Part shown: piece by piece, positions 47,117-64,000 of the stretch
Numbering within the stretch: position 1 is the stretch's first letter
Layout of the letters: each line of letters opens with the position of its first letter
Source of the DNA: a virus
Reading direction: 5' to 3' (one strand)
IMG/VR virus record: IMGVR_UViG_3300030107_007542
Location: 64,001-128,000 of that record
Length of the DNA: 64,000 bases
Program-made: the position numbers and the translations under genes
Notes under the pieces: model-generated
What the model saw: only the letters and a program-made list of their open reading frames with translations
What the model was told of the DNA's origin: nothing
Databases searched by the model: none

Positions 47117-47329
47117 CTATTCCTCTATAGAGGAAATGAGATCGCCTAGCTCAGTGTTTTCTAAACTCACTACAGGAGGGTTAGTAATAACGAGAGCGCT
47201 TTGAGATTGATCCTCGGGATCAACTTGAAAGTTCATCTCTTTCAAAAGCGGTACAATGTCTGTTTGTTCCAATAAGGATTTTTGGAGCGCCATCATGAGG
47301 GCGCCCATGGCTTGGTCGGTAAGTTTCAT
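47117..47329 (-). CDS. Hypothetical protein (70 aa)
   Basis: ATGA-coupled ORF filling the gap; no recognisable domain. Confidence 0.55.
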   Translation of the reverse strand: MKLTDQAMGALMMALQKSLLEQTDIVPLLKEMNFQVDPEDQSQSALVITNPPVVSLENTELGDLISSIEE

Positions 47330-47886
47330 TTCTGCTTTCTCTCTAGCCGCAAAATACGCTCATGAATATCGTGGAGGTGGCTTTCCATATGCCTTGAGTG
47401 CTCTTGAAATGCGGTGCGCAGCATCTGATCTATAACCTCGCGGATCGTCCCTTCCGACAGGGCCGGAGTTGTTGGAGTTGTCTTTTTCTTCATTTTATTA
47501 GTCCCTTCTAATATTTCAGTGGTTGAGTAGGCTCCCACGCGCTCAAAGTAACATACTTCTTTTGCAAACCGTGCTCCTACAATTGGTTTACCCTTCCAGT
47601 CCGAACCCACCACCATATAGGCCGGACGAAAGCGTTTAATACATCTTCCTAATTCTTGTGGTGTTCGAAATATCACCACTTCATCGACGCATCTTAAAGA
47701 GTTTAGCATAGCTTTACGATCTTCTTCAGTATTAAAAGGCCGATCTAAACCCTTATCCTTTTTGACTTTTTGATCTGAATCGATGCCGACCACAAGCCGA
47801 GTGCCCAAAGATTTTGCATATTCCAGCATTTCTATGTGCCCTCGATGAAGAACATCAAAACATCCATTTGTCCATACAGTTGTCAT
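47326..47886 (-). CDS. HldE/RfaE domain II-like sugar-phosphate nucleotidyltransferase with a 55-aa C-terminal extension
   Basis: TNGCFDVLHRGH (HxGH), VGIDSD...KG..RP, VVGSDW, YSTT. Start at 47886 (ATGA overlap). Confidence 0.85.
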   Translation of the reverse strand: MTTVWTNGCFDVLHRGHIEMLEYAKSLGTRLVVGIDSDQKVKKDKGLDRPFNTEEDRKAMLNSLRCVDEVVIFRTPQELGRCIKRFRPAYMVVGSDWKGKPIVGARFAKEVCYFERVGAYSTTEILEGTNKMKKKTTPTTPALSEGTIREVIDQMLRTAFQEHSRHMESHLHDIHERILRLERKQK

Positions 47887-48620
47887 TGGGCTGTGTTGAC
47901 TCCTCGCTTTTGAACCACTTGAGTGGCACATTGATTCGCGTACTCGATTGCCTCACTGATGTCGGGGTTGTGATTATAACTTACAGCAAGAGCTGCCATG
48001 AAGGTGTCTCCCGCTCCCGTAACATCTTTGATCTCCACTTCACTAACTGGGTATGTCACCCCTCCATGAAGGCACCCTTTGGAACCAAGGGTAACAATTA
48101 ATTTTTCCTCAATATCGGGCGTGATGGTGGCTTCTGTTTGTGAAAACTCGTAATTATTTATTTTGATATATTTAATCCCTGCGCAGTACGGGCCCAAGGG
48201 GCGTTTGGTGTCCAGGAAAACCGTATCATGTTGAGAGGCCACATAGGCTATACTTTCTTCTGTCAAGAACCCCTTGCAGTAATCAGATATAACGACAAGG
48301 GCGTATTGTTTGAAATCAATAGCCTTAACATCACAAGGTTCGATAACATCGTCATTGACATCAATGCGAATAAACATCTGATTTGTGTTCTTGTGAATAT
48401 ACCGAGTTTTAATAACATGGGCCCAATTATGGTTTGTTACAATGTCACATTCTGTCCCTAGAGAAACGATGTTTTGTCGGACATTCATAGCCATCCCACA
48501 GTTCTCTACCTGACTAATAGGATTAAACACCGGGGCAGGCGCTTCTGGGCAAAGTCGGTCAACATTGCCATAGCAAAAGACATCCTTACAAGTTTCACCT
48601 ATCACCAATATTTTCTTCAT
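47883..48620 (-). CDS. HldE/RfaE domain I-like PfkB sugar kinase
   Basis: GETCKD...RLCPEAPAPV, GMAMNVRQN, ISDYCKG and the PfkB anion-hole motif DVTGAGDTF. Confidence 0.85.
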   Translation of the reverse strand: MKKILVIGETCKDVFCYGNVDRLCPEAPAPVFNPISQVENCGMAMNVRQNIVSLGTECDIVTNHNWAHVIKTRYIHKNTNQMFIRIDVNDDVIEPCDVKAIDFKQYALVVISDYCKGFLTEESIAYVASQHDTVFLDTKRPLGPYCAGIKYIKINNYEFSQTEATITPDIEEKLIVTLGSKGCLHGGVTYPVSEVEIKDVTGAGDTFMAALAVSYNHNPDISEAIEYANQCATQVVQKRGVNTAQ

Positions 48621-48622: not shown

Positions 48623-49630
48623 TTACCTTGACAAAAAATTTCGCCCTGAGCTGACGCGGTCACGCCAATAATCTAAAAGATCCTGCATGGTAGTTTCGAA
48701 CGAAATCTCCGGTGTCCATCCCGTATGAGTAGTAAACTTAGTCGTGTCAGGAACTTGCAGGTCGGCATCGATCGGTCGCAAGCGACTTTGCTCTACTTCG
48801 ACCTGAATTCCTTCCATGGTCGAAAGACCAACCAGATGTTTCAGCATATCTCCCACCGTACAGGAGAATGTTCCTCCGATGTTATAATACTCTCCCCCCG
48901 TAGGATTCACTGTAACAAGCATGTGATACGCGCGGACCGCATCTCGGACATCAGACCAAGTCCTAAGAGAGCTTAGATTTCCTACCTTTATAACAGGGGG
49001 CAATTGGCCGGCCTCAATCATTGCAATTTGTTTTGCAAAAGTAGACTCAGCAAAAACGTCTCCGCGGCGAGGGCCGGTGTGAGTAAACATTCGGGTGGTC
49101 ATCACTGTAAGGCCATATGCCTGTGCATAGTAACGACCAATCAGATCTGTACCCACTTTTGAGATTGCATAAGGCGACGCCGGATGAAATGGTACCTCTT
49201 CATGAATCGGCAGATATTCCTTGGGGACTTGGCCGAAGACTTCAGAAGAGGCGCAAACATGAATAATAGGACGACAATCCGACTTTCGGATTGCATCAAG
49301 AAGCTTGGCGGTCCCTAGGATATTAGTGTTAAGTGTGTCGAGGGGCGCCTCGAAACTTGTTTGAGGGTAACTCTGCGCAGCCAAATGGAACACATAATTT
49401 GGTTCTGTCACTTGAATAGTGTAAATCAGCGAAGACAGATCATTGAGATCTCCGTATACCAATTCCACTCGACCCTTTTTGTTGATCTCTGGAAGGAGAT
49501 GGTTCAAATTGTCTAGGTCGTCATTCCACCGCGCTAGGCCATAGATTTTCCAATCAGTATTAGCTATGAGATAGTCGGCCAAATGAGATCCAACCATCCC
49601 GGTAATACCTGTGATTAATGCTGATGTCAT
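48623..49630 (-). CDS. gmd: GDP-mannose 4,6-dehydratase-like SDR
   Basis: ITGITGMVGSHL, HLAAQS, SSEVFG, PASPYAISK, GNLSSLRTWSDVRD. A Gmd versus Rmd assignment cannot be settled by eye. Confidence 0.75.
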   Translation of the reverse strand: MTSALITGITGMVGSHLADYLIANTDWKIYGLARWNDDLDNLNHLLPEINKKGRVELVYGDLNDLSSLIYTIQVTEPNYVFHLAAQSYPQTSFEAPLDTLNTNILGTAKLLDAIRKSDCRPIIHVCASSEVFGQVPKEYLPIHEEVPFHPASPYAISKVGTDLIGRYYAQAYGLTVMTTRMFTHTGPRRGDVFAESTFAKQIAMIEAGQLPPVIKVGNLSSLRTWSDVRDAVRAYHMLVTVNPTGGEYYNIGGTFSCTVGDMLKHLVGLSTMEGIQVEVEQSRLRPIDADLQVPDTTKFTTHTGWTPEISFETTMQDLLDYWRDRVSSGRNFLSR

Positions 49631-50580
49631 AGAATGTTCTCCTTATACCAGGCTAATGTGCGTTTAATACCCTCATCGAGTGAGATTTGTGGCGACCATC
49701 CCAATTCGCGCGAAGCTTTTGTGCAATCCAGAAACAAACTTGTTTTGATAGTAGGTTTTGAAAGGTCATGCTTTATAGCGAGGGTGCGGCCTGAGGTGCT
49801 GATTATCTTCTTTACAAGATCCACAACTGGGACGGCTGCTCCTAGGCCCACATTAAATAGCCCAAAAGGTGCTTTTTGGTGGGTTAGGGCTGCGTCAACA
49901 AAATTAACCAAGTCATCAACGTGGAGAAGATCGCGCTCTTCCTCACCTGTACCCCACACATTTACGATACCAGTTTCATTGGTCATCACCTTGGTAACTG
50001 TAGCACCAAAAACATGGCTGCGCTCTAGATCGTACTTGTCGTAAGGACCATACATATTAGAGTGTCGCATCACAGTGTGGGTGGTTCGTCCCAAGCCCGC
50101 ATAGAATTCACACATCTTCTCAATGTAAATCTTTGTGTTCCCTACTCCAAAATAGCGATCAAGAAGTCGCTTATTACCATCGAAGTCTTCCTCTGTGGTT
50201 GGGTCTTCTTTGGGTTGGTACATTACAGTACAACTCGGAAATACAAAATGTTCAACCTCGAAGTCAAAAGCCGCTCTCAAAAGCAGCGAGTTCATAACAG
50301 CATTATCAGTAACATGTATGTATGGTCGATTAACTATATCATTTGCGCCCGACGTAGTGGCCGCAAACTGGAGTATGATGTCAACCCCTTCAGTGACACG
50401 TCGAACATCTGCCTCATTGTTCAGGTCTGCCTTTACCCACTCTACATTGTACTGTGTAAGTGCTGGTCTCTTATTCCAGACTGCGCGTACATGGTAGCGT
50501 TCGTCGTCAACATACCTTTCTAATAGGTTTCGTCCGATAAACCCTGTAGCGCCGCATAACAGTAGTGTCTTCTTACTCAT
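49627..50580 (-). CDS. GDP-fucose-synthase-like NAD(P)-dependent epimerase/reductase (atypical active site)
   Basis: GATGFIG, NMYGPYDKYDLERSHV, VWGTGEEERDLLHVDD; the YxxxK position reads VGNTK. Confidence 0.75.
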   Translation of the reverse strand: MSKKTLLLCGATGFIGRNLLERYVDDERYHVRAVWNKRPALTQYNVEWVKADLNNEADVRRVTEGVDIILQFAATTSGANDIVNRPYIHVTDNAVMNSLLLRAAFDFEVEHFVFPSCTVMYQPKEDPTTEEDFDGNKRLLDRYFGVGNTKIYIEKMCEFYAGLGRTTHTVMRHSNMYGPYDKYDLERSHVFGATVTKVMTNETGIVNVWGTGEEERDLLHVDDLVNFVDAALTHQKAPFGLFNVGLGAAVPVVDLVKKIISTSGRTLAIKHDLSKPTIKTSLFLDCTKASRELGWSPQISLDEGIKRTLAWYKENIL

Positions 50581-51298
50581 AATAATTCCTTAAAAACAAC
50601 TCTACCACATCGCTCGAAGTCCGTTCGGGATAAGGGTAAAGATTCTCCACCTCTATAAGATCATTCAAGCTTGTTTCGTATGTATAATGTCCAAATCTTA
50701 CGTTTTTATTATAGTGTTCCGCCAAGTCCAGTAGCCTCACACCCTCAGATGCTACAAAATTGTACGTACCTGATCGGGCAAGGAGTTCATCGTTGGTAAC
50801 TGCTTCTAATATATCATTTTGTAATACATAATTAAAGATTGATTCTGAATGAAGGGTTAATTCCTTCTCCTCCATCAAGCGAATTAAAGAATTCTTTCTC
50901 ATCGTAGGCCCCAAAATAGCTGGTAACCTGAGAATCAATGCGTCGGCCTGTCGCTTTGTGATAAAATCTTCTGCGCAGCGCTTCATGAAGCTATAAGGAG
51001 TAAAAGATCCATATACATCAATACTGGAAAAATACACAAATTTAACGCTATACAAATATAATAAATCTTCGGTTAAGAAAATGTTGTCTTCTATGTATTG
51101 ACTATAATCTGTAACATCTCTTTTGGTATTAAAGGCGGCATGTAATACTACCAAATTTTCAGCCTTTTCAGCAGCATCTAAAATCTCATATTTATTATCA
51201 CGTGAAAGACCAAGAGCCCCGGGAAGGTTTTCATAAAGAAATTTCCCGAGGCCCGATCCTACTCCTGTAATAAGATATGTTTTATTTTCGGAAGGCAT
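50573..51298 (-). CDS. Short NAD-dependent epimerase/reductase (SDR)
   Basis: ITGVGSGLG, FSSIDVYG, YSFMK (YxxxK), LRLPAILG. Confidence 0.7.
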   Translation of the reverse strand: MPSENKTYLITGVGSGLGKFLYENLPGALGLSRDNKYEILDAAEKAENLVVLHAAFNTKRDVTDYSQYIEDNIFLTEDLLYLYSVKFVYFSSIDVYGSFTPYSFMKRCAEDFITKRQADALILRLPAILGPTMRKNSLIRLMEEKELTLHSESIFNYVLQNDILEAVTNDELLARSGTYNFVASEGVRLLDLAEHYNKNVRFGHYTYETSLNDLIEVENLYPYPERTSSDVVELFLRNYYE

Positions 51299-52250
51299 TG
51301 TGTCGATTATCTACAATCTCCTGGTTCTCCTTGAACCATTTAATGGTGTCTACGATTCCCTCTTCGATACTAACAGTTGGTTCGAAGCCGTGGGACTTTG
51401 CGCGAGTCATGTCAAACACCCTGCGTGCATCGCCTGTGGGCTTTGTTGTATCCCATCGTACCTCGATGTCTTTACCGCAGTGCTTGACTACTAGATCCAC
51501 AATGGTCTTAATTTGCACTCCATCGCCGGAGCCTAAATTAATAGGGTCCGTAACCCCGTTCTCCACCGCGTGTAGCATACCTAGTGCAACATCCCGGGAA
51601 TGAATAAAGTCCCTAATAGGAGACCCGTCGCCCCATACTTCAAGGTGGTCATTCTCTAGGGCCTTACGCACCAGTGATGGAACTACCATAGCATTCTCAG
51701 GGTCAAAGTTGTCGTATGGACCATACACGTTTGCCGGCCGGACTATAGAAACGCAGTCCCAACCGTACTGTATGGAATACGCCTGTGCTTGTAGCTCCCC
51801 GATCCTCTTGGCCCAACCAGCAAAGCGGTCGTTATCAGAGGGAAAAGTACTCCACACATCATCTTCCTTAAAAACCTCAGCTGGGTGATATACCCCAACA
51901 CTGCTAGTATAGAGGTACCACTTAACTCCTTGGGCTCGTGCAGCCTCCATCATGTTGGTATTAAACTGCAACATTGGTACCATGAAGTCTGCTGGTTGTT
52001 CTCGGCACATCTTGGGTGAACCCTTAACTCCGACGAGGTTGAAAACGTAGTCCATCCCCTCACAAATCTCCAGACACTTATCAAAGTATCGCAAGTCTGC
52101 CTTAACAAACTGTACACTCTCTGGGAGTCCCTGTGGGGTATCTAGTGAGACTACATATACCTGGGCTCCTCTCTCCACTAGCAAATCTACTAGAGGCCGG
52201 CCTATCATCCCAGTACCCCCTGTTACTAATACCTTTTGTCCCTCAAACAT
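51282..52250 (-). CDS. GDP-fucose-synthase-like epimerase/reductase (atypical active site)
   Basis: VTGGTGMIG, PANVYGPYDNF, VWGDGSPIRDFIHSRD; the YxxxK position reads AGWAK. Confidence 0.75.
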   Translation of the reverse strand: MFEGQKVLVTGGTGMIGRPLVDLLVERGAQVYVVSLDTPQGLPESVQFVKADLRYFDKCLEICEGMDYVFNLVGVKGSPKMCREQPADFMVPMLQFNTNMMEAARAQGVKWYLYTSSVGVYHPAEVFKEDDVWSTFPSDNDRFAGWAKRIGELQAQAYSIQYGWDCVSIVRPANVYGPYDNFDPENAMVVPSLVRKALENDHLEVWGDGSPIRDFIHSRDVALGMLHAVENGVTDPINLGSGDGVQIKTIVDLVVKHCGKDIEVRWDTTKPTGDARRVFDMTRAKSHGFEPTVSIEEGIVDTIKWFKENQEIVDNRHNAFRK

Positions 52251-53424
52251 TGTTTATCCTTTCACACAAGTCAATTATTTGTTCTCTCGTTAAGTCAATA
52301 TGATTTCCCACATATAAACTAAAGTCATGGATGTGGTCGGCTACGTCCAGACGACCCACAATCTTATATTCATAGAGTCCTTCTCTCAGGTATGGCTGGC
52401 GGGCCTGGTTGCCCCCTCCTGCCGTACCGAGGCGATACTCTACCCCAACCTCCTCTAGGACGCCTGCAATGCGGCAGAGAAGCTCCTTGTCCGTCTCCTG
52501 CAGGATTAAGGGTAGTGCAAAGTTACTATTACCCTCTAGTGCATAGTCGGTGAAGAACCGCTGGGAGTTTAGGTGTGAAACCCAGCATTCCAAATTCTCA
52601 ACGCGGCGAGCGATATTTGAATCAAGCCGTTGCAGCTGTTCCAGTCCCAGGACTGCGTTCATCTCCATGCTGCGTAGATTATATCCGGGCACAGCAAAAG
52701 TAAAGAGAGGATTGAGATCTGGATAATTCTTCTTATAACGATCTTGGAAAGCCGGAGATGCCTCGCGGGTCATACCATGGGATCGAAACAAACGCGCGTA
52801 CTCATGGATCTCCGGGTTATTTGTGCAAACAACGCCGCCTTCAATTGTTGTGATGTGGTGGCCAAAATAAAACGAGAAGTTAGACATATCACCGAAGGCG
52901 CCAATTTTCTCACCATTGTATGTGGCCCCATGAGATTCACAACAGTCCTCAATCAACAGAATGTTGTATCGATCAGCTAGTTCTCGTAGCTCAGTTGACA
53001 TGGCGTTAAAGCCCATCGCATGCACCAAAACAATAGCCTTTGTGTAGGGGGTGACTGCTTCTTGGATATTCTCAAACGTCATTGAAAAATTGCTTTTATC
53101 AACATCAACAAAAACAGGCGTCATCCCTAGATTAACCACAGGAGCAATATCCGAAACCCAACCAATGGGAGGCACAATAACCTCCCCAACTCCTTTAAGC
53201 TCTTTAACGATTGACATCATGATATAGTTGGCCGAGGCGCCCGAATTTACAAACGTGGTGTGATTGACCTGCAACCACTCAGACCACTTGCTTTCAAACT
53301 CTCGTACCTTGGGTCCATTTGTAAAACGAACGTTAGGGGTCTTAATAAAATCAATCAAAGCCTGCTTATCAGACTCAGTAATGTTGTCATTAATCAAAGG
53401 CCACGTAAATTTATTTGGTGCCAT
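52243..53424 (-). CDS. ColD-like PLP-dependent GDP-4-keto-6-deoxymannose 3-dehydratase (DegT family, His-type)
   Basis: WPL, VNSGASAN, IEDCCESHGA, and FSFYFGHHITTIEGG with His at the usual Lys position. Start at 53424 with SD GGAG. Confidence 0.75.
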   Translation of the reverse strand: MAPNKFTWPLINDNITESDKQALIDFIKTPNVRFTNGPKVREFESKWSEWLQVNHTTFVNSGASANYIMMSIVKELKGVGEVIVPPIGWVSDIAPVVNLGMTPVFVDVDKSNFSMTFENIQEAVTPYTKAIVLVHAMGFNAMSTELRELADRYNILLIEDCCESHGATYNGEKIGAFGDMSNFSFYFGHHITTIEGGVVCTNNPEIHEYARLFRSHGMTREASPAFQDRYKKNYPDLNPLFTFAVPGYNLRSMEMNAVLGLEQLQRLDSNIARRVENLECWVSHLNSQRFFTDYALEGNSNFALPLILQETDKELLCRIAGVLEEVGVEYRLGTAGGGNQARQPYLREGLYEYKIVGRLDVADHIHDFSLYVGNHIDLTREQIIDLCERINNV

Positions 53425-53947
53425 AATATTCTCCATATTCAACTATAAGAGTGGGTCGAGCGTCGTCTCGTTCGTAGGCTTTCTGAAAGGCCGGAAAGAT
53501 CTCTTCTGGCTCCTTAAGCTCAACCACATCCACATAAGTGAGCATTTTCCGAAATGCCTCAGTATGGTTCTGGGTATGCTGAGGGCCGGCGTCAATGGGT
53601 GTTTTCGCTCCAATAGCCACTCTAATGATAACGCGTGGGCGCATATCCCCGGACGACATTACATTAATCTTATCCAAATGATTCACAAGCTGGTTACACG
53701 CCAAAATAAAGAAATCAAAACGAGGATACATTGTAATCGGAACAAGACCCGTAAGGGCCATGCCCGTAGACAGCCCCAATTGTGTCTCTTCAAAGACCGG
53801 TAGTTCTACACGCTTGTCCAAGGGGACATTCACCAGTGTGCTAGAAATAGCGTGACCGCTAACGCGGCATGCCTGCCCCAGAAAGATTGTGTCTTTCTGT
53901 TGCCCAAGCCAGTCCATAGACCGGATTAATTCATCGCGATATTTCAT
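53411..53947 (-). CDS. Truncated ThDP-enzyme E1 beta-like subunit (pyrimidine-binding domain only, 178 aa)
   Basis: ELPVFEETQLGLSTGMALTG, PRFDFFILACNQLVNHLDK, GPQHTQ; no transketolase C-terminal domain. Confidence 0.75.
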   Translation of the reverse strand: MKYRDELIRSMDWLGQQKDTIFLGQACRVSGHAISSTLVNVPLDKRVELPVFEETQLGLSTGMALTGLVPITMYPRFDFFILACNQLVNHLDKINVMSSGDMRPRVIIRVAIGAKTPIDAGPQHTQNHTEAFRKMLTYVDVVELKEPEEIFPAFQKAYERDDARPTLIVEYGEYYGTK

Positions 53948-53949
53948 AA

Positions 53950-54582
53950 CTAAAAATTCACCCATTTTCCAGTACCATGATGGGGGTATTCCATCTCGTA
54001 CGCATAATATATAACATCATCTGGAATGGGTTGTTTGACCCCCCACGCCATATCCGTCGGAGTGTGGACGCTCATATTGTTATCTTCAATAACCCACTGC
54101 AAGGGAAGGTCAAAGTTTTTGGCATATTTATAGCTTTCATAAAATACGCCCCCTTCGGCGGTCATATCTCCAACAAAACACCACACTCGGTTGGGCGATT
54201 TAAGCTTCTTTAGGCCAGCTGCAGCGCCCAGGGCCATCGGGATAATCCCTCCAACAATCGAAGATGCATAAAAATTAGGATTGACGTTGTTCGTTCCCAT
54301 GCTGTGTCCTTTGACAATGTTCGCAAACAGCTTATCTTCGGGGACACCGTGTAACAAGGCGTGATAATGATTTCGCCAGGGAACAAAAACCCAGTCTTTC
54401 TCGCTTACGTGTTGAAAAATCTCAATGAGTTGTTCCTCATTGTTTTTTGCTAGGTGAATAGGGCCAGCTATTTCTCCGGCCTCGTACTTGTCTCGCACTC
54501 GCGACTCAAAATCTATAAGTTCTTGAGCGGTGTACAACGGTTCCCGAACCTTCTTCAGATGTGATGGTATTTTTAGTGTCAT
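53950..54582 (-). CDS. Truncated ThDP-enzyme E1 alpha-like subunit (210 aa)
   Basis: GPIHL...NEEQL, WRNHYHALLHG, SSIVGG and the ThDP motif GDMTAEGG...EDNN. Confidence 0.78.
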   Translation of the reverse strand: MTLKIPSHLKKVREPLYTAQELIDFESRVRDKYEAGEIAGPIHLAKNNEEQLIEIFQHVSEKDWVFVPWRNHYHALLHGVPEDKLFANIVKGHSMGTNNVNPNFYASSIVGGIIPMALGAAAGLKKLKSPNRVWCFVGDMTAEGGVFYESYKYAKNFDLPLQWVIEDNNMSVHTPTDMAWGVKQPIPDDVIYYAYEMEYPHHGTGKWVNF

Positions 54583-55058
54583 TATTTATCTCTCGGTTGT
54601 AAAATAGGGTTATCAATTGGCCAGTCAATATTCCAGGAAGAATCGTCCCACTTAATGGTGAACTGATCGTTAACATCTGGGTATGATCCAGGGTACAACC
54701 ACTTATAGTGGAACACCGATTCATCGCTCAGGACCAGAAATCCATTTCCAACGCCCGGGGGCAAAAGAACTTGTTTGCGACTTCTTGAATCTAGTATCAT
54801 CGAATCCCATTGTTTATTCGTTGAAGAAGTGGGTCGTGGATCAGCTACCACAAAGTATAGTTCCCCGTATAAGCAGGTCACTAGCTTCCAAGATTTTTGG
54901 TCGCCATGAATTCCCCGTAGGACATTGCGTCGCGAAGTTGAGACTTTATCATGATTGAAATTGAACCTGTGCGTATCAGAATTCCATAAAGTCCAAAGAT
55001 CTCCTCTATAGTCTGTGTACACATCTGGCTGCATAACTTCAACGCCTTCAATCTTCAT
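54582..55058 (-). CDS. rmlC: dTDP-4-dehydrorhamnose 3,5-epimerase family (RmlC-like cupin)
   Basis: DYRG, STSRRNVLRGIH, KLVTC, LLPPGVGNGFLVLSD, IKWDD. Confidence 0.85.
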   Translation of the reverse strand: MKIEGVEVMQPDVYTDYRGDLWTLWNSDTHRFNFNHDKVSTSRRNVLRGIHGDQKSWKLVTCLYGELYFVVADPRPTSSTNKQWDSMILDSRSRKQVLLPPGVGNGFLVLSDESVFHYKWLYPGSYPDVNDQFTIKWDDSSWNIDWPIDNPILQPRDK

Positions 55059-55467
55059 TATCGCTCCAGCTAATCTCCCAATCTTTAAACTCGGCCGCCA
55101 AACAATCTATTTTATAATCCTTACGGCCGCCGGCGAGTTCTTGGATCTTGTTCTTTGCTGTATTTCGAATACCATTAAGCCCATGGGTCAGTTCCAGATT
55201 ATTGCCATCCCTGATCCCTTTCCGGTAGTTTGACTCATTATGCCAAATATGTAAATTCATCTGCGATAGAACAACTATCGCCCGCACAACCTCAGCATTT
55301 ATTTCTTCGGCTTCGTTCAAACACACATCGATATCGTGACAAATGTCTTTAATTTCCTGTGCGTATTCCTCTTTATGGTCTGTTATAAAGACTTCTTTCA
55401 GCTGGGTGATAGACAGCCGGTCAACCAGTTCAGCTAAAGTGGGAAGGTATTTTCGTTCACTTGTCAT
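55048..55467 (-). CDS. Hypothetical helical protein (DUF4254-like)
   Basis: LAELVDRLSITQLK and IWHNE motifs; within the sugar cluster. Confidence 0.45.
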   Translation of the reverse strand: MTSERKYLPTLAELVDRLSITQLKEVFITDHKEEYAQEIKDICHDIDVCLNEAEEINAEVVRAIVVLSQMNLHIWHNESNYRKGIRDGNNLELTHGLNGIRNTAKNKIQELAGGRKDYKIDCLAAEFKDWEISWSDNED

Positions 55468-56320: not shown

Positions 56321-56612
56321 CAAAAAAGTCCCTGCTATTAATGGCTTTATCATCAATAAAAATGTCGTAATGAGGCTTCCCTAGTTTAAGTTCATGATGT
56401 TTAGCTCCCCACTCTTCTAACTGGTTGGTTGTTAGCTCAGTCCAGTCCCGGCCTGTTACACCGCCGCGAGCAGTCCAATAAACTATAGTATGACCGTCGT
56501 CATATAACTCATTAATTTTTTTGATGTTCTCGCGGAGAGGCTTTGCATCCGGATAATATCTTTCTCCAGCATAGAAACAAATTGTTTCATCTATATCCAC
56601 GTAATATATCAT
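56307..56612 (-). CDS. Small HAD-superfamily phosphatase (capsule biosynthesis phosphatase-like)
   Basis: YVDIDETI, YWTARG, GKPHYDIFIDDK. Confidence 0.8.
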   Translation of the reverse strand: MIYYVDIDETICFYAGERYYPDAKPLRENIKKINELYDDGHTIVYWTARGGVTGRDWTELTTNQLEEWGAKHHELKLGKPHYDIFIDDKAINSRDFFDDDL

Positions 56613-56614: not shown

Positions 56615-56956
56615 CTAGTCTCCCTTCTGTATTCTGTGACTGTCGCTATCGAAATGTTCTGTTGAAAACTCAAACAATTCTGAGTCCTCTAGAGCGATCA
56701 TCTGATGTCGCAGGCCGCGGTACACATGAAAGTTGTCGCCGGCATTAAGGATCAATTCAGTTGCTTGATCTAGATCGTCGTCGTCGGAATATTTGACTAT
56801 CATCTTACCACTTTGCAAATAGAACACTTCATCCTTTAACACATGATAATGCCACGAACAACGCTTGCCTTTATTAAAATATAAAAGCTTTCCGCAATAC
56901 TCTGGCTTGTTAACAATCCAGCGCTCCCAGCCCCATCCTTTGTCTACATGTTGCAT
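56615..56956 (-). CDS. Cupin, sugar isomerase-like (mannose-6-P isomerase type II-like)
   Basis: KGWGWE...CSWHYHVLKDEVF...H motif; start at 56956. Confidence 0.75.
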   Translation of the reverse strand: MQHVDKGWGWERWIVNKPEYCGKLLYFNKGKRCSWHYHVLKDEVFYLQSGKMIVKYSDDDDLDQATELILNAGDNFHVYRGLRHQMIALEDSELFEFSTEHFDSDSHRIQKGD

Positions 56957-56957
56957 A

Positions 56958-57908
56958 TTACCACCTAAAGTTGTTTCTACATTCTTCGACGATCTTAGTG
57001 ATCTCTTCATGGAATTTTTTCTTAGGCTCCCAGCCTAAAGCGCGCAGCTTAGAATCATCTAGAGCATAGCGTACGTCCTGACCTAGACGAACAACAGAAA
57101 AATCTACATATTGTTCCCAGTTTTCGTCGGTGCCATAAAATGCTTTCACGATTTGCTTTACTGTCTCCCGATTACTCTGCTCAAAGCCGCCGGCTACGTT
57201 ATAAATCTCGTCCACCACGCCAGCCTCCACAATGGTGACAACTGCTGCCGCAGTGTCTTCAGCATGCAACCAGTTTCGCACGGGGGTTCCCTGGTTATGA
57301 AGTCGAATAGGGTTGTCGCGCGTAAGATTCTTTACAGCAATAGGGATTAATTTCTCTGGGTATTGTCCGATACCGTAGTTATTTGTCGGTCGCAAAATAA
57401 TATAGTTGATATCATAGGTCCTGGCCCACGCATGAATAAGCATATCTGCAGCAGCCTTGGCGGCTGAGTATGGGTTGCTAGGCTTAAGAAGGTCTGTTTC
57501 GGTGTGATCACCGTCTGCAATATCTCCATACACTTCATCTGTGCTTACATGAAAGAAGATGGGTCGATTATTGCAGTTTAATGGCTTATGACGGACCAAA
57601 TCAAGAAGGTTTTTGACCCCCACAATATTACTGTTGATAAATTCGTCGCTGTTAATGATGCTGTTGCCCACATGTGACTCTGCCGCGAAGTTAATAACAT
57701 AATCACAATCATAAAGATGCGTTAGATTACAGATATCTTCGCGTAAAAACCTAAAATTATAATAGGATTCGAACTCTTCCAACAAAGACTCATTAGCTAC
57801 GTAGGTACATTTGTCTATACCATACACTTTCCAGCCCAGTTCTAGGCATTTTCGTGTCGTATATGACCCTATAAAGCCCAAGCATCCTGTAATATAAACA
57901 ATTTTCAT
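56958..57908 (-). CDS. rmlB: dTDP-glucose 4,6-dehydratase-like
   Basis: TGCLGFIG, FAAESHV, HVSTDEVYGD, PSNPYSAAK, NNYGIGQYPEKLIP, GQDVRYALD. Confidence 0.88.
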   Translation of the reverse strand: MKIVYITGCLGFIGSYTTRKCLELGWKVYGIDKCTYVANESLLEEFESYYNFRFLREDICNLTHLYDCDYVINFAAESHVGNSIINSDEFINSNIVGVKNLLDLVRHKPLNCNNRPIFFHVSTDEVYGDIADGDHTETDLLKPSNPYSAAKAAADMLIHAWARTYDINYIILRPTNNYGIGQYPEKLIPIAVKNLTRDNPIRLHNQGTPVRNWLHAEDTAAAVVTIVEAGVVDEIYNVAGGFEQSNRETVKQIVKAFYGTDENWEQYVDFSVVRLGQDVRYALDDSKLRALGWEPKKKFHEEITKIVEECRNNFRW

Positions 57909-59245
57909 TGATACTTCTCCATAAATCGATTCACAGAGCCTTCAATATAGTCTAATTTTTCATCAGTAATCCCGGCGAAAGTGCCCAAAAAGAAGGAATT
58001 AGTGGTGATTTTATAGGCTACCGGGAATGTCTCTTTAAGATTTTCGTACTGTCGGCCAAGCTCTGAGTATCCGGGGTGGAACAAAATGTTGCCGGCAAAA
58101 TAACTGCGTGTTTGAATTTTATCCCCTTCCAGGTGGCGCACGATATCTTCACGCGTGAAGGGTGCATCCTCCCTAAGTGTTAGCAAAAAGGCAAACCAAC
58201 AGGGATCTGATTTGGGTGTGGGCTCTGGGAGGTGGCAGTACTTGGCATAGGGCTCGAAAATCTCATGCAAACGTGCAAAGTTTTTGCGGCGGGCTCCGTC
58301 CATCATCGGAAGCTTCTTAAGCTGTTGTAATCCCATAGCTGCTTGCAGTTCTAGGGGCTTGATATTATAGCCAATTTCTTCGAAAACATAACGATGGTCT
58401 GCAATGATCTCTCTCGCACCCGGGAGCCAGTTCTTGAACCTGTTGCCGCAAGCTGTCCCACTTAGGACACATCCCGGCTTAACAGAATTGCAATAGCAAG
58501 CGCGGCCCCAATCACGGAAACTGCTGATGATTTTTTCTAGTCGAGCGGAGTTCATCGCGACGAAGCCGCCTTCGCCCATAGTCATATGATGAGCAGGGTA
58601 AAATGAACAGGTTGAGATATCCCCAAAAGAGCCGAGCTTCTTGCCGTCATATGTTGAACCCAAAGCATCGCAAGCGTCTTCTAAGAAAAGTAAGTCATAT
58701 TTCTCTACTAGGGCCATTACACGATCCATGTCGGGAGGATTCCCCAGCACATGAGCAAACATAAGAGCCTTGATCTCTTTGTTGGTGTCGGCAGCTAAGG
58801 CCGCTTCAACTTGATCAAGATCAAGATTTAAGTCTGGAAGAGTGACGTCCACGAAAACTGGTTTAAAGCCATTCTGGATAATCGGATTAAGAGTCGTAGG
58901 GAAGCATACAACGGGGGTAATAATTTTAGACCCCTCCGGGAGTTGCTTCCATCTTTTGGATTTAAGCGCCGACACCATAAGTAGGTTTGCAGAGCTACCT
59001 GAGTTTGTCAGGACTCCATGAGTCTTTCCTAGGTGTGCGGGGAACTCAACTTCAAATTGACGCCCCTTTTTGCCTAATACAAGCCATCGACTAAGCAGGC
59101 TTTCCACAGCAGCCACGTATTCGTCACTATTATATACGTTGCCTGAATAGGCAATCCAGTCCTCGCCAGGGGTCCAACTCTCGGCGCCCTCGCATTCTTT
59201 AATATATTCATCAACCAAAGTTAAGATAGTGTCTAACTTAGACAT
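57905..59245 (-). CDS. rfbH: RfbH/AscC (E1)-like NDP-4-keto-6-deoxyglucose 3-dehydrase
   Basis: NSGSSANL, HVLGNP, EDACDALGS, SFYPAHHMTMGEGG (His-type), and the Cys-rich Fe-S segment WGRACYC...C...CGNRF. Confidence 0.88.
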   Translation of the reverse strand: MSKLDTILTLVDEYIKECEGAESWTPGEDWIAYSGNVYNSDEYVAAVESLLSRWLVLGKKGRQFEVEFPAHLGKTHGVLTNSGSSANLLMVSALKSKRWKQLPEGSKIITPVVCFPTTLNPIIQNGFKPVFVDVTLPDLNLDLDQVEAALAADTNKEIKALMFAHVLGNPPDMDRVMALVEKYDLLFLEDACDALGSTYDGKKLGSFGDISTCSFYPAHHMTMGEGGFVAMNSARLEKIISSFRDWGRACYCNSVKPGCVLSGTACGNRFKNWLPGAREIIADHRYVFEEIGYNIKPLELQAAMGLQQLKKLPMMDGARRKNFARLHEIFEPYAKYCHLPEPTPKSDPCWFAFLLTLREDAPFTREDIVRHLEGDKIQTRSYFAGNILFHPGYSELGRQYENLKETFPVAYKITTNSFFLGTFAGITDEKLDYIEGSVNRFMEKYQ

Positions 59246-60062
59246 TTTGTTCCCTCTCCATGACCTGACGGATTCCTTCCTGTAATCCTACCAGATCTAG
59301 ACCTAGTTCCTCCAGCCGAGCGCCGGAGCCGGTGTATGTATAAGCATATCCTTGCTTTTCTAATATAATGCCTGTGCTATTCGTTGTCAAGTTGTTCAGT
59401 TCTTGTGCAACCTCTAACAAACTGCTTTTATCAGGATAACACATGTTATAGTCTACATGTGTTGTGTGTTTTCGCGTCATCAAATGTTCTATCACCTTGA
59501 TAAGATCTCCCACATAAAAGAAATCCATCTTTCGATCTTGAAGGATAAAAACAGGAAGGCCCTCTCTTATTCTCGCCATTGAATTCTTAATGAATCTCGT
59601 ACTTTTCTCCATTGTACCAAAACATCCGAACAAACGCAAGTTAATAATATTCTTATTATGCAGAATAATCTCGCGAGCAATTAAATTCTTGGCTAGTCCG
59701 TAATAATCCGTGGGAATACATCCATAGATATTTTCTTCAACAGCATTCTCGACATTTGAGTACCTATCAAATGCTGCGCCGGAGCCAAACGAAAACATCC
59801 ACTTATACTTATCGGCATGCGCCTTAAGATTGTGAAACATATTTAAGTTAGCCCTAAGGGATGCGAAGCTATTGTCTGCTCTAACAGCAGTGTGGAGTAC
59901 AACATCAATCCGGTGGTTAGAAAAAAAGCTCTCCACCTGTGTTGCATCTGTAAGATCTAGCGTTTGCCGTGGTGCGGCGATGACCTCATGAGTAGTTCGA
60001 GAAAAGTGCTCTACAAACTCTTTACCGAGAAAACCATTTGCTCCGGTTATTAATATCTTCAT
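59238..60062 (-). CDS. NAD-dependent sugar epimerase/4-reductase (SDR)
   Basis: ITGANGFLG, FGSGA, YGLAK (YxxxK), LRLFGCFG. Confidence 0.8.
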   Translation of the reverse strand: MKILITGANGFLGKEFVEHFSRTTHEVIAAPRQTLDLTDATQVESFFSNHRIDVVLHTAVRADNSFASLRANLNMFHNLKAHADKYKWMFSFGSGAAFDRYSNVENAVEENIYGCIPTDYYGLAKNLIAREIILHNKNIINLRLFGCFGTMEKSTRFIKNSMARIREGLPVFILQDRKMDFFYVGDLIKVIEHLMTRKHTTHVDYNMCYPDKSSLLEVAQELNNLTTNSTGIILEKQGYAYTYTGSGARLEELGLDLVGLQEGIRQVMEREQNV

Positions 60063-60073: not shown

Positions 60074-61009
60074 TTATTCCACCCACTTCGCCGATTTTCT
60101 AAGCTCAGTTAGTTGCTCATCTTTAATCGAATATGAGTAGGTTTCTCCCGGGAAGGCTCCACTGTGTACATCTGCCACGTACTGCTCGATAGCCATTTTG
60201 GCCAACACTAGCAAACCATCGCCTCGCTGAGTGCGACCCAGTTGGCGAAGATCTCCGGCGGCTGAAAGATATTCAGTAAACCTACCTACAACCTCCGGTA
60301 CATAACACTTTGCAAACCAAGGTCGGAAAGACTGATAGAAGCCCATCAGATCATGCATAATGACAAGTTGTCCGTCAACACCTCCGCCGGCGCCGATGCC
60401 ATAAATAGGAATTTCCAGCTGCGCTGCGATCTGGGCCGCTGGTTCTGCTGGCATCGCTTCAAGCAAAATAGCAAAGACGCCAGCCTCTTGTAATGCCAAT
60501 GCATCTTCAAGAGTATCCTCGAAGCTCTTTACAGTCTTTCCCTGGACTCGATATCCACCAAAGGAGGTTGTACTCTGAGGAGTGAGCCCCAGGTGCCCCA
60601 CAACCGGAATACCTGCATCAACAATTGCGCGTACGCGAGTGGATACTCGGCGCCCTCCTTCTAGCTTGATAGCATCAGATGCGCACTCTTTTACAAAGCG
60701 CATTGCATTTCTAACTGCTTCCTCATCACTAATCTCATATGACCCCTGAGGCATGTCTCCCACAATAAACGTATTTGGGGCGCCTCTGCGAGCAGAGGAG
60801 GCCATGAAAATCATTTCATCCATCGTAACCGGATTTGTGGTGTCGTATCCTAGTTGTACCATCCCCCCAGAATCGCCAACAAGAATCATATCAACTCCCG
60901 CTTCTTCCGTGACCTGAGCAAACGGCAAATCATAAGCCGTAATCCAAGTTAATGGAGTACCGTTCTTCTTCATGGATACAAAATCTAATATTGTTTTCTT
61001 AGTTGCCAT
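60074..61009 (-). CDS. panB: Ketopantoate hydroxymethyltransferase (PanB)-family protein
   Basis: ITAYD, LVGDS, DMPQGSY, IKLEGG, GHLGLTPQ, LLEAMP, GIGAG, DGQLVIMHDLMG; carries an extra segment near the C-terminus. Confidence 0.85.
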   Translation of the reverse strand: MATKKTILDFVSMKKNGTPLTWITAYDLPFAQVTEEAGVDMILVGDSGGMVQLGYDTTNPVTMDEMIFMASSARRGAPNTFIVGDMPQGSYEISDEEAVRNAMRFVKECASDAIKLEGGRRVSTRVRAIVDAGIPVVGHLGLTPQSTTSFGGYRVQGKTVKSFEDTLEDALALQEAGVFAILLEAMPAEPAAQIAAQLEIPIYGIGAGGGVDGQLVIMHDLMGFYQSFRPWFAKCYVPEVVGRFTEYLSAAGDLRQLGRTQRGDGLLVLAKMAIEQYVADVHSGAFPGETYSYSIKDEQLTELRKSAKWVE

Positions 61010-62796
61010 TATTCCTCCTCAAGTGGTGCGACTACCATATTCTCGTAAAATTCTTCTCTGTCCAGGAAAGGAAGCATGTCCTCTAGCGGTCTAGAAATAA
61101 GGCGACCGTCGGGGAGCTTTTTCGAACCAATTGTTGGTAAGACCGCATCCCACTTTTTACACATCACTTCACAAATTACTGGACCCTTGTATTCTAACAC
61201 CCTTTTGATGCTTCTTTTAAGGCCTTTAAGCTTCGAGGCTCTAAAATATTTAATGCCATAAGCGTTGGCGATTTTTTGAAAATTAGGAAATGAAACTCCC
61301 GATTCCTCATCGGTACCAATAAACCTATCCTCAAAAAATTTTCTTTGTGTTGTGCGAATGGAAAGATAACCATTGTTGTTCCACACAAATATCTTCACCG
61401 GAAATTTATTATAGACGATCGTTTGAAGTTCCTGAATGTTACTTTGGAATGAGCCGTCGCCAGTAATGCCAATAACATCTTTGTTTCCGCGAGCAACACA
61501 TGCGCCAATGCTTGCAGGGAGTGTAAAGCCCATATCGGCTTGACCGCCTGATGTAATATAGCGCTGTTTATTGGTTACCTGAAGCGCCTGGGATGTTACA
61601 TAAAAGGCCGAGCCTGCATCCGATACCACCACATCGTCCGGTCGCATAGAATCAGACAGCACCTTCATAAAGGCATAAAGACTTATGCCATCTTCGTCAC
61701 TTTCAAAATGTTCTGGGAGAGAGACTGGCCACTTTGTTTTCCAGGCCAAACATTTCTGTGCCCATGGAGTGGGAGCCGGAGGGAATCCAACTTTTAGCAA
61801 AAACTCCTTAGCGTCTGCCACAATCAGATGGTCGATTCGGACGGTGTTCTTCTGGTGTTCGAACTTATCAATGTCTACAACAATGAGCTTGGCCTCTCGA
61901 CCAAACAACTCGTAACGATAACCAGTAACAGGGACGCCCAAGCGCGTGCCAATAGCCAAAATTACATCGGCATTTTGCATGGCAAAATTAGCTGCTCGAT
62001 TTCCTTTAATTCCTACGCGCCCAATATTGAGGGGATCGTTAGATGGCAAAAGATCTGCAGCCAGATATGTGTTCACTACAGGAATATTATGCAAATGCAC
62101 AAACTCAGCAAAAATCTCTTGTGCGCCAGCCAATCGAATGCCGTTGCCTGCCAGAATTACGGGACGCTCTGCTTGTGCGAGATATCGACTAACAGCAGCG
62201 AGGTCCTCCACTTCTGGAACGAAGGATTCTTTTTCGGGTGTAAACCTCTTGAGCTTTTCAGGCTCGATAAGAGCGCCCTGGACATCCATCGGAATATCAA
62301 GCCAGACTGGGCCCGGGCGGCCACTGAACGCTAGGTGTACAGCCTTATCAATATGGTAAGCAATCATTTCAGGGTCATTAATCATGACCGCATATTTCGT
62401 CAATGATTCAACAATGGCAATAATATTGGCCTCTTGAACGCCAAGTTGTCGCAAAGGCAAATTAATATTATGTGTGGCCTGCTCTTTATTAACCTGACCA
62501 GAAATAAAAAAGGTAGGAAGGTTGTCCTGCCAAGCTTCCAGGAGCCCCGTTATAGTATTGGTGCTCCCGCACCCCGTTGTGGGCATCACAACGCCCATTT
62601 TGCCACTGTATTTGCCATAGCCAACCGCGGCCATTGCCGAAGCTTGCTCATGATGGCTACAGACTGCTTGTAGTTTTGGATGTTTGGCAACGCCGTCGTT
62701 TAAAAACATAGCACCGCCGCCGGTCAAGGTGAAAACATGTTCTACCCCCAGGTCAACGATTCGCTGTGCTACATAATCTACAACGCGGGTAGGCAT
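61009..62796 (-). CDS. AHAS-like ThDP-binding protein (YerE-like)
   Basis: GGGAMFLND, HHEQASAMAA, TTGCGSTN, SGRPGPVWLDIPMDVQ, QADMGFTLPA, and GDGSFQSNIQEL...NNNGY. Confidence 0.85.
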   Translation of the reverse strand: MPTRVVDYVAQRIVDLGVEHVFTLTGGGAMFLNDGVAKHPKLQAVCSHHEQASAMAAVGYGKYSGKMGVVMPTTGCGSTNTITGLLEAWQDNLPTFFISGQVNKEQATHNINLPLRQLGVQEANIIAIVESLTKYAVMINDPEMIAYHIDKAVHLAFSGRPGPVWLDIPMDVQGALIEPEKLKRFTPEKESFVPEVEDLAAVSRYLAQAERPVILAGNGIRLAGAQEIFAEFVHLHNIPVVNTYLAADLLPSNDPLNIGRVGIKGNRAANFAMQNADVILAIGTRLGVPVTGYRYELFGREAKLIVVDIDKFEHQKNTVRIDHLIVADAKEFLLKVGFPPAPTPWAQKCLAWKTKWPVSLPEHFESDEDGISLYAFMKVLSDSMRPDDVVVSDAGSAFYVTSQALQVTNKQRYITSGGQADMGFTLPASIGACVARGNKDVIGITGDGSFQSNIQELQTIVYNKFPVKIFVWNNNGYLSIRTTQRKFFEDRFIGTDEESGVSFPNFQKIANAYGIKYFRASKLKGLKRSIKRVLEYKGPVICEVMCKKWDAVLPTIGSKKLPDGRLISRPLEDMLPFLDREEFYENMVVAPLEEE

Positions 62797-63533
62797 TAAT
62801 CGTCCCTACCCCAGGTACCCTTCCAATAGCCGCGGATAGTATCATCGTAATTGGTGGTTTCTTTGTGCATTCCCCATGTTGCTTGCCCGGGGTGCCACCG
62901 GTACTTATATCCTAACCAACGATCAGCTGGAAAAATGAACACGTTTTTATCGGCTAATCTAAAATACAGGTGATAATCGGCAGCGCCTAGGTACTGCGGA
63001 TCCCATTGCAACAGGCGACGCTCTTTAAGCTCTCGACTATACACCATGGTGGGAGTGTTGACAGGGCTTTTCTGGAACAAAAGTTCCTTAAACTCAGCCA
63101 TGCTCTTGTAATGATGTGCCACCTCTCCTAGAAAGGTCTCTTCTTTTCCTTCAATTCCTTGAATCGGACTCTGGAATGCCAGAATTTTAACAGGAGCCTT
63201 TTCAATATACTCCATAAAATTAGCCACATAAGTGGGAATTATATAGTCATCGGCGCCTAAAATAGTGATATAATCACCGGTGCACAACTTAAGACCCTCA
63301 GTAACTGGCTCATCCCAAGACCATCGATACAGATTAGGAGCCGTTGAAATAACTAATTCAGGGTGATCTTTTTGAATACCCCGGGCAATCTCTAGACTCT
63401 TGTCCGTGCTCTCATTATCAACGAAAATAACCTCTGTATTTTCATAAGTTTGATCAAGGGCCGAGAGAATGCATTTTTCAATCCAATCTTCGGCGTTATA
63501 ACATGGTATTAAGATAGTAACTTTGAGACTCAT
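62796..63533 (-). CDS. Glycosyltransferase family 2
   Basis: ILIPCYNAEDWI, VIFVDNESTDKS, LGADD, DYHLYFR. Confidence 0.88.
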   Translation of the reverse strand: MSLKVTILIPCYNAEDWIEKCILSALDQTYENTEVIFVDNESTDKSLEIARGIQKDHPELVISTAPNLYRWSWDEPVTEGLKLCTGDYITILGADDYIIPTYVANFMEYIEKAPVKILAFQSPIQGIEGKEETFLGEVAHHYKSMAEFKELLFQKSPVNTPTMVYSRELKERRLLQWDPQYLGAADYHLYFRLADKNVFIFPADRWLGYKYRWHPGQATWGMHKETTNYDDTIRGYWKGTWGRDD

Positions 63534-64000
63534 TGCATCAATCCTATGATAAGATCGGGGATTTCATCCCTCTTGGCGCGCATTTTATTAACTAAGTCGG
63601 AGCCCTTAAGTTTGAACCAACTTTCTTGTGTAGCTCCAACTAATTTATTGGTAATGACTTTCATTCCCATCATTCGACTTTCCACCACTATTCGAGACAG
63701 TGTTTCAGGTGTTTGGGGAAAGAAGACTAGCGTATCATTTTCCCCGAGTTGTTCCAGAAATGTATGATAATTGGCACCGGAACACAGAACGTAATCTCGT
63801 TGCGTCGCTTTACAGTATTTGACTGCCGTGGGCGTGTTCTTGTGGACAATAGGGGAATCTAAAACAGCGCAGCGCTCCTTCTTTTCCGTGGTAGCCAGAG
63901 ACTCTAGTTTTTCCAAAGCTTCCTCACTCCACAGATTTCCTCCAACACTCTCTATATTCTCCAACTTCAAATTCTTTTTAACTATATTAGCATGAAAGGA
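63530..64000 (-). CDS. Glycosyltransferase (GT-B/GT4-like), C-terminal part; runs in from the right edge
   Basis: Frame is open to base 64000; FFPQTPETLSRIVVESRMMGMKVITN resembles the GT-B E-x7-E motif. Confidence 0.6.
   Translation of the reverse strand, partial: SFHANIVKKNLKLENIESVGGNLWSEEALEKLESLATTEKKERCAVLDSPIVHKNTPTAVKYCKATQRDYVLCSGANYHTFLEQLGENDTLVFFPQTPETLSRIVVESRMMGMKVITNKLVGATQESWFKLKGSDLVNKMRAKRDEIPDLIIGLMQ

Follow-up and report, generated by a model that had tools for sequence, protein, structure and literature searches.

Acyl-branched deoxysugars are rare surface sugars, and catalysts for chiral tertiary alcohols are being sought among the thiamine diphosphate (ThDP)-dependent enzymes that install their branches. 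The clusters for yersiniose A (YerE/YerF), erwiniose (ErwI/ErwJ–ErwE–ErwF), caryophyllose (MMAR_2331/2332) and gastriose have been brought under one unifying scheme (PMC9306805), in which a 4,6-dehydratase and an E1-type 3-dehydrase generate a 3,6-dideoxy-4-keto sugar, a neighbouring enzyme makes a 4-hydroxy-2-oxo-acid donor, a ThDP enzyme of acetohydroxyacid synthase (AHAS) fold branches the ketone, and a short-chain dehydrogenase/reductase (SDR) reduces the product. Two further systems stand close to the locus described here: the GDP-3,6-dideoxy-heptose pathway of Campylobacter jejuni HS:5/HS:11 (PMC10440746), which comprises a 4,6-dehydratase, a pyridoxal phosphate (PLP)-dependent C3-dehydratase, a cupin epimerase and SDR C4-reductases, and a two-subunit E1-like ThDP system (KbDH being its only assayed member), which operates within a deoxysugar pathway and has no E2/E3 partners. 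Phage-encoded soluble glycosyltransferases (GTs), with or without nucleotide-sugar genes, are themselves known from lytic tailed phages: mycobacteriophages glycosylate their virions (Freeman et al., 2023, as cited in PMC12619734), whilst the large cyanomyoviruses P-SSM2, S-SCSM1 and S-SCSM2R carry lipopolysaccharide (LPS)/cell-wall clusters (PMC12801897); for these mycobacteriophages and cyanomyoviruses we found no report of C-branching ThDP enzymes, of an E1-type dehydrase with PanB or of a dideoxy-heptose route. Similarly, our literature search returned no paper on a YerE-like enzyme in a phage, nor on a viral PanB in sugar synthesis or branching, and a 2025 review names viruses as an unexplored source of YerE-type branching enzymes (PMC12247030). 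Here we analysed a 64,000 nt window (bases 64,001–128,000 of IMG/VR record IMGVR_UViG_3300030107_007542, a 193,778 bp viral genome rated complete by CheckV), in which a run of genes at 47326–64000 shares features with each of these systems. Judged from its sequence, this run is probably a phage glycan island, in which conserved soluble GTs would be served by a swappable nucleotide-sugar cassette with two routes to 3,6-dideoxy-4-keto sugars, each equipped with its own ThDP branching enzyme.

Within the window the island consists of 20 complete genes (g01–g20) and one cut by the window end (g22), all on the minus strand and all devoted to sugar chemistry (Table 1). Their reading frames overlap or abut, and the sole apparent gap, at 47205–47325, is a small ORF. 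Beyond the window the array runs on for another 2.9 kb, to genome base ∼130,899, taking in the rest of the 277 aa gene and two GT4 glycosyltransferases before a PD-(D/E)XK nuclease follows; the full array thus comprises ∼23 genes. Pfam and NCBIfam assigned a sugar-chemistry family to 19 of the 21 window genes and g13 gained one via PHROG, leaving g11 as the only gene without. The original prediction for this DNA, made from the sequence alone, had described at least 21 contiguous genes; their contiguity stood, whilst the count is corrected to the numbers given above. The enzyme classes that it had named were found where it had placed them, among them two C3-deoxygenases (one of E1/RfbH type, one of ColD type), two ThDP carboligase systems (the YerE-like g19 and the E1 alpha/beta-like g08/g09) and a PanB-type enzyme embedded among the sugar genes. 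Mis-assembled host DNA, the artefact that it had warned of, is ruled out: the GC content of the island is that of the remaining genome, the entire array was found again in another IMG/VR contig (76–98 % aa identity), and parts of it recur in dozens of further viral contigs with the same phage flank. The island is therefore genuine phage DNA. Its carrier is a distant T4-like myovirus, recognizable by a gp23-family capsid gene, gp6-like baseplate wedge proteins, an SbcCD-like nuclease and a gp55-like late sigma factor (weak match) directly downstream of the island. The nearest cultured phages, Microcystis phage Mel-JY01 and Flavobacterium phage immuto, are remote (only ∼28 % identity in the wedge protein), and megablast of the island against cultured phages gave no match.

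The first of the two predicted routes leads to a branched hexose. Its E1-type dehydrase, g16, passed the RfbH threshold (NF011936, 472 bits against an equivalog cut-off of 423) and aligned end to end with Yersinia E1 (3bcx; 342 bits), the motif YPAHHMT standing opposite YPAHHIT; the PLP-binding Lys is replaced by His, and the iron–sulfur cysteines are kept (CDALG, CYC, PGC and C positions). Upstream in the pathway, g15 bears out the RmlB-like enzyme of the original prediction and is of dTDP type by score (TIGR01181, 293 bits against a cut-off of 365; CDP-glucose model, 70 bits), which sets it apart from the CDP-type 4,6-dehydratases of the unifying-scheme clusters; the lack of an E3 reductase and the lytic-type phage carrier are further differences. 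The candidate branching enzyme, g19, has the three-domain AHAS fold (Pfam N, M and C domains) with a ThDP motif (GDG at residues 446–448, NN at 473–474), yet it falls below every AHAS cut-off. Amongst solved structures it scored highest with JanthE (8rph, 436 bits), followed by PpYerE (5ahk, 266 bits) and AHAS enzymes (∼257 bits), and both JanthE and PpYerE are ketone-accepting YerE-like carboligases (PMC12247030, PMC12188165; function also in PMC9306805). Genes g15 and g16 lie 1.8 kb from g19 in the same array. Of the best 80 loci from bacteria and archaea that encode the nearest relatives of g19 (42–61 % identity, many phyla), ∼55 had an RfbH-like gene within 10 kb, tying the g19 family to 3,6-dideoxy-4-keto sugars. 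We infer the following order of steps: host-made NDP-glucose would be dehydrated by g15 and deoxygenated at C3 by g16, with electrons from host ferredoxin/flavodoxin systems, whereupon g19 would put an acyl branch on the C4 ketone and g17 would reduce a ketone.

The source of that acyl branch is suggested by g18. By its motifs g18 is a complete PanB with an intact catalytic apparatus: it scored 288 bits with TIGR00222 (equivalog cut-off 207) and, compared with 1oy0 and 1m3u, keeps the metal-binding and catalytic motifs LVGDS, GDMP, KLEGG, GHLGLTPQS and LLE; it has one insertion of ∼30 aa. A relative of g18 is encoded by 163 IMG/VR contigs, and in the best 80 of these an AHAS-family ThDP gene was found within 6 kb of PanB in every case and within 300 bp in 72, whereas none of the 80 bacterial loci with the closest YerE-like enzymes contained PanB, a comparison which does not imply that the pairing never occurs in bacteria, the viral loci having been picked via PanB and the bacterial ones via the ThDP enzyme, with the best 80 taken each time. 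The gene order ThDP–PanB–SDR–E1 was kept down to 46 % PanB identity, and a g17-type SDR was conserved beside PanB and E1 in the viral loci. In a tree of 171 ThDP enzymes, g19 fell into an all-viral clade of 43 members, 41 of them PanB-linked, which is sister to bacterial YerE-like enzymes without PanB; the tree held other PanB-linked viral clades as well. In a second type of viral locus, moreover, PanB and a ThDP enzyme are accompanied by a GT2 and a GT47-like gene as well as a methyltransferase, an SDR and a B12-radical SAM enzyme, which is glycan chemistry too. Two metagenomic proteins of ∼647 aa (P0415 and P0420) were found to consist of an N-terminal extended SDR of NDP-sugar type fused to a C-terminal PanB 46–48 % identical to g18; these are the two exceptions amongst long PanB forms, which are mostly PanB–PanE or PanB–PanC.

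Since YerE-like ErwE, MMAR_2332 and MyGE accept 4-hydroxy-2-oxo acids from a neighbouring aldolase (PMC9306805), and since PanB products belong to this same class of compound, the linkage seen in all 80 viral loci points to PanB as the probable maker of the 4-hydroxy-2-oxo-acid donor of the branch. In this model g18, a methylene-tetrahydrofolate hydroxymethyltransferase, would hydroxymethylate a host 2-oxo acid and so provide the donor for g19, taking the place of the pyruvate aldolase of erwiniose-type clusters. Alternatively, PanB and an 'acetolactate synthase' might be ordinary auxiliary genes, serving pantothenate/CoA and branched-chain amino acid synthesis and merely situated beside sugar genes; the score of g18 above the PanB equivalog cut-off would agree with this, as would a virome survey that cites ketopantoate hydroxymethyltransferase/pantothenate literature on viral auxiliary genes (PMC8940887). 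We consider this very unlikely, given that g19 is closest to JanthE/YerE rather than to AHAS, that the phage genome contains no small AHAS subunit, IlvC, IlvD, PanC or ApbA/PanE and so offers no pantothenate-pathway context, that the viral PanB–ThDP pairs always lie amid sugar genes and that in this phage both genes sit inside a tightly packed run of such genes. Matches to both enzymes in records labelled as phage were set aside: those to AHAS (26–33 % identity), like most of the PanB matches (37–46 % identity), came from records that bear the names of hosts such as Listeria, Salmonella and Staphylococcus, and they probably reflect host contamination. A separate observation concerns a 186 kb viral contig (L198:1–12831), where the PanB–ThDP pair has two radical SAM enzymes as neighbours, one B12-binding and one of SPASM type, along with a methyltransferase and a GT47/RXYLT1-like glycosyltransferase; this suggests still more elaborate sugar chemistry.

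The second route appears to lead to a heptose of the C. jejuni 3,6-dideoxy kind, and not through GDP-mannose/colitose chemistry with RmlB/RmlC. Whilst the original prediction had read g03 as Gmd-like and hence as part of a GDP route, it scored 349 bits with its best solved relative, the GDP-d-glycero-d-manno-heptose 4,6-dehydratase 7us5, against ∼146 bits with true Gmd. The RmlC-like assignment of g10 likewise gives way, as g10 reached 150 bits with the C. jejuni GDP-heptose 3,5-epimerases (8db5, 8dco) and 83 bits with RmlC, a pattern that places it with the heptose route rather than with RmlB. In g07 (399 aa) the motif GHHIT stands opposite ColD SHHIA, again with His for the PLP Lys, and the stretch aligned to the E1 cysteine region contains no cysteine at all, i.e. 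no Fe–S insertion; on motif evidence, the His in g07 and g16 marks both DegT-family proteins as dehydratases and not aminotransferases. Every activity by which PMC10440746 defines the 3,6-dideoxy-heptose pathway of C. jejuni is therefore represented, four in all: 4,6-dehydratase (g03), PLP C3-dehydratase (g07), epimerase (g10) and C4-reductase (g04/g06). The phage differs from C. jejuni in having two fucose-synthase-like SDRs plus a degenerate SDR, in activation genes that are HldE-like rather than HddA/HddC, and in the insertion of a ThDP E1 alpha/beta pair between dehydratase and epimerase, which predicts a branch that the C. jejuni sugars lack. With g02, g13 and g01 resembling HldE/GmhB activation steps, a heptose phosphate would be activated by these three enzymes and then converted by g03, g07, g10 and g04/g06 to a 3,6-dideoxy-heptose, as in C. 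jejuni. In g13 the N-terminal motif DIDET (DxDxT) is accompanied by a weak match to the capsule biosynthesis phosphatase model TIGR01689.

The inserted pair, g08 and g09, consists of adjacent overlapping genes between the 3-dehydratase g07 and the epimerase g10. Full-length E1 subunits are ∼320 aa each, whereas g09 consists of the PP domain of E1 alpha alone and g08 of the PYR domain of E1 beta alone: g09 aligned only to residues 92–212 of a 368 aa E1 alpha, and the alignment of g08 stayed inside the first ∼180 residues when compared with E1 beta chains 324–369 aa long. The ThDP motif and the region of the cofactor-activating glutamate are nevertheless present. The two proteins thus fall outside the full-length subunits and form a distinct short family, and at 210 and 184 residues they also differ from the known two-subunit E1-like system, standing in a large separate family known from sequence. 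For g09 this family comprises 495 clusters at E ≤ 1 × 10−10, with most listed members ∼190–260 aa; it is very abundant in marine metagenomes, and its 120 closest relatives showed 71–90 % identity. Relatives of ∼400 aa proved to be alpha–beta fusions, g08 being 47 % identical to the C-terminal half of one of them (P0136), from which it follows that g08 and g09 probably act together as one enzyme. No E2 or E3 genes were seen in the island, the remaining genome not having been searched for them. Within the heptose route, g08/g09 would probably add a two-carbon branch from pyruvate. Two homologues of the mini-E1 alpha (P0155 and P0165) were found to be interrupted by an intein or LAGLIDADG homing-endonuclease domain.

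The sugars so formed would then be transferred in the cytoplasm to an acceptor. Where at least three glycosyltransferases had been predicted, the window itself holds two clear ones (GT10-like g12 and GT2 g20) and one cut GT-associated gene, with the GT4 pair lying beyond. The conserved set thus consists of GT4, GT4, the 277 aa GT-associated protein (virus-only clusters) and GT2, plus the GT10-like enzyme. The anchor PD-(D/E)XK nuclease–GT–GT–x–GT2 is kept in immuto (MW353176.1, 47,964–59,944), in which the cassette that follows is different and of amino-sugar type, with aminotransferases, a methyltransferase and an acetyltransferase-like gene; amongst the phages that have conserved this anchor, the cultured ones infect Flavobacterium, Microcystis and Rhodothermus. 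No transmembrane segment was predicted in any protein of the cluster, no ORF in the genome had more than three, and no thymidylate-synthase-family hydroxymethylase was detected in the complete genome by a search that did detect it in control genomes. Taken together, the absence of membrane proteins and of a hydroxymethylase and the conserved anchor make DNA less likely than an acceptor in the cytoplasm, such as virion proteins; our leading guess is virion proteins, and the pairing of a conserved GT scaffold with a sugar supply that can be swapped agrees best with an acceptor encoded by the phage. S/T-rich fibre proteins are present, and S/T-rich motifs are denser in the fibre and baseplate proteins, but such motifs are usual for phage fibres and were rejected as evidence of glycosylation. 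In its most specific form, which we offer tentatively and as more doubtful than the island itself, a whole lineage of large aquatic myoviruses extending from the cultured Immutovirus to this marine phage might coat its virions via a hypervariable 'serotype' island. Here the island would make two sugars new to chemistry, one a 3,6-dideoxyhexose whose hydroxyacyl branch derives from PanB, the other a 3,6-dideoxy-heptose C-branched by a minimal two-domain ThDP enzyme.

The same chemistry might instead be aimed at the host surface, the phage remodelling LPS or capsule with the carrier, flippase and polymerase of its host and thereby blocking superinfection or altering grazer recognition. This is how the LPS/cell-wall clusters of large marine cyanomyoviruses are usually read (PMC12801897); in PHROGs the GT2 is similar to GtrB-like O-antigen conversion families, and bacterial relatives of g19 and g16 lie in loci with other nucleotide-sugar genes, YerE-like enzymes being described as serving LPS (PMC12247030). 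The phage, however, encodes neither Wzx nor Wzy and lacks both a ligase and an initiating phosphoglycosyltransferase, there is little time in a lytic T4-like cycle for the surface to turn over, and an anchor common to phages of three such host genera fits a phage-encoded acceptor better than host-specific lipid-linked ones; we regard a host-surface acceptor as possible, though rather unlikely. Decoration of the phage DNA, i.e. base hypermodification with glycans as a defence against restriction, is very unlikely, and the original prediction too had called it the less likely alternative. Diverse glycans are indeed attached to hydroxymethylated pyrimidines by T4-like and other phages (Pyle et al., 2024, as cited in PMC12619734), the glycosyltransferases are soluble, and the PD-(D/E)XK nuclease and a PhoH gene flank the island; against this stand the missing hydroxymethylase, an island in which we saw no further gene for base modification, and the service of YerE-like branched-sugar enzymes in cell-surface glycans (PMC12247030).

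Several observations weigh against the glycan island with virion proteins as acceptor, in addition to the unequal choice of viral and bacterial loci noted above. All substrates are predicted from sequence, and g18 scores as an ordinary PanB, which by sequence would also allow a ketopantoate/CoA role; a PanB–ThDP fusion was searched for and none was found. In the hexose route, g16 has no E3 (AscD/DdhD) reductase partner, the genome containing no Fer2 or NAD_binding_1 domain, and there is no RmlA/DdhA-type nucleotidyltransferase, no gene of the NTP_transferase family occurring in the genome. The phage would thus depend on host pools and host electron donors. The E1 homologue SpnQ uses general cellular reductases, so a missing E3 does not bar function. 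In the heptose route, a supply of GDP-alpha-heptose via HddA/GmhB/HddC is not encoded, and the kinase and transferase are HldE-like, a type that goes with ADP-beta-heptose, but GDP-alpha-heptose is what the closest dehydratase and epimerases of solved structure use; the genome also lacks GmhA (no SIS isomerase). Together with the absence of an RmlA-type transferase, this mismatch makes the nucleotide carrier uncertain. As for the acceptor, a glycosyltransferase need not span the membrane to reach lipid-linked host glycans, as peripheral enzymes can act on them too. Lastly, promoter scans were uninformative on the timing of expression: the T4 late promoter TATAAATA was not enriched (3 sites against 3.1 expected), sigma-70 and terminator scans gave background levels, and k-mer enrichment in intergenic gaps yielded no late motif usable within the island.

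Table 1. Genes of the predicted glycan island within the 64,000 nt window (window coordinates; scores in bits unless an E-value is given)
Gene	Coordinates	Strand	Length (aa)	Predicted product	Supporting match
g01	47326..47931	-	201	HldE domain II-like sugar-1-phosphate nucleotidyltransferase	PF01467; TIGR02199 rfaE_dom_II 120, below cut-off
g02	47883..48620	-	245	PfkB/HldE domain I-like sugar kinase	PF00294; TIGR02198 117, below cut-off
g03	48623..49630	-	335	NDP-heptose 4,6-dehydratase-like SDR	7us5 349
g04	49627..50580	-	317	GDP-fucose-synthase-like SDR, probable epimerase/C4-reductase	PF01370; NF047922 115
g05	50573..51298	-	241	Divergent SDR-like protein	Weak PF01370 (E 0.0019); phrog_540 nucleotide-sugar epimerase
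g06	51282..52250	-	322	GDP-fucose-synthase-like SDR	NF047922 150; solved GDP-fucose synthases 120
g07	52243..53442	-	399	ColD-type PLP/pyridoxamine phosphate (PMP) sugar 3-dehydratase	2gms (ColD/WbdK) 178
g08	53411..53965	-	184	Minimal E1 beta-like protein, PYR domain only	PF02779; pyruvate dehydrogenase E1 beta N-terminal half
g09	53950..54582	-	210	Minimal E1 alpha-like protein, ThDP diphosphate-binding domain only	PF00676; GDM...NN motif
g10	54582..55058	-	158	NDP-4-keto-heptose 3,5-epimerase-like cupin	8db5, 8dco 150
g11	55048..55467	-	139	Conserved helical protein	DUF6165-like
g12	55457..56356	-	299	GT10 (fucosyltransferase)-like glycosyltransferase	PF00852, E 5e-10
g13	56307..56612	-	101	Short HAD-like protein, candidate sugar bisphosphate phosphatase	phrog_1238, E 2.5e-31
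g14	56615..57010	-	131	Small cupin, candidate keto-sugar isomerase/epimerase	PF07883; phrog_7851, E 4e-56
g15	56958..57908	-	316	RmlB-like NDP-glucose 4,6-dehydratase	TIGR01181 293
g16	57905..59245	-	446	E1/RfbH-type PMP and iron-sulfur sugar 3-dehydrase	NF011936 472
g17	59238..60062	-	274	RmlD-like SDR, candidate side-chain/C4 ketoreductase (YerF-like role)	PF01370, PF04321
g18	60074..61009	-	311	PanB-type 2-oxoacid hydroxymethyltransferase	TIGR00222 288
g19	61009..62796	-	595	YerE/JanthE-like ThDP carboligase	8rph 436
g20	62796..63533	-	245	GT2 glycosyltransferase	PF00535, E 1e-25
g22	63530..64000 (cut at window end)	-	277	Virus-specific protein	Fold known fused to GT2/GT1 domains

Two of the smaller island genes gave few leads to function. 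For the cupin g14 there was no useful relative amongst solved structures, and the AlphaFold model of g11 (helical, pLDDT 67) found no Foldseek match in the PDB. In all phage loci listed but one, g11 was 73–97 % identical where its neighbouring genes were 40–70 % identical; it was also present beside PanB–ThDP pairs without E1, and its clusters in Atlas were viral only. Around the island, an FmdB-family zinc-ribbon protein (46866–47114) and a small ORF of ∼66 aa (47128–47329) separate it from the gp55-like gene, and another cytidylyltransferase-like gene, with a weak resemblance to HldE domain II, lies ∼3 kb past it (genome ∼133,896–134,435), just upstream of a PIN–PhoH gene. Elsewhere in the window, two giant ORFs were seen on the minus strand amongst baseplate and tail genes, at 20551–33291 (4,246 aa) and 37083–43226 (2,047 aa), the former with 17 % Ser+Thr and many [ST][GAS][ST] motifs. 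Outside the window, the gp23-like major capsid protein (genome 40,093–41,961; 622–623 aa) gave two Pfam Gp23 matches ∼230 residues apart, a spacing that suggests a large insertion domain.

These findings extend the known branching systems by two new variants, the PanB donor model and the mini-E1 enzyme, and show that phages hold large and diverse clades of the enzymes concerned, with E1-type dehydrases on more than 440 viral contigs and PanB–ThDP pairs at at least 80 viral loci. If PanB does make the donor, new side chains are to be expected, and the enzyme would have a second natural role as donor-former for sugar branching. In that case 'panB' and 'ilvB' of ocean viromes would be glycan genes, which would change how annotations such as 'pantothenate' and 'acetolactate synthase' are to be read. 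As immuto shares the GT anchor, it offers a cultured model in which to search for the acceptor. More broadly, the combination of a conserved anchor and a swappable cassette suggests that selection acts on these lytic phages to keep a glycan variable.

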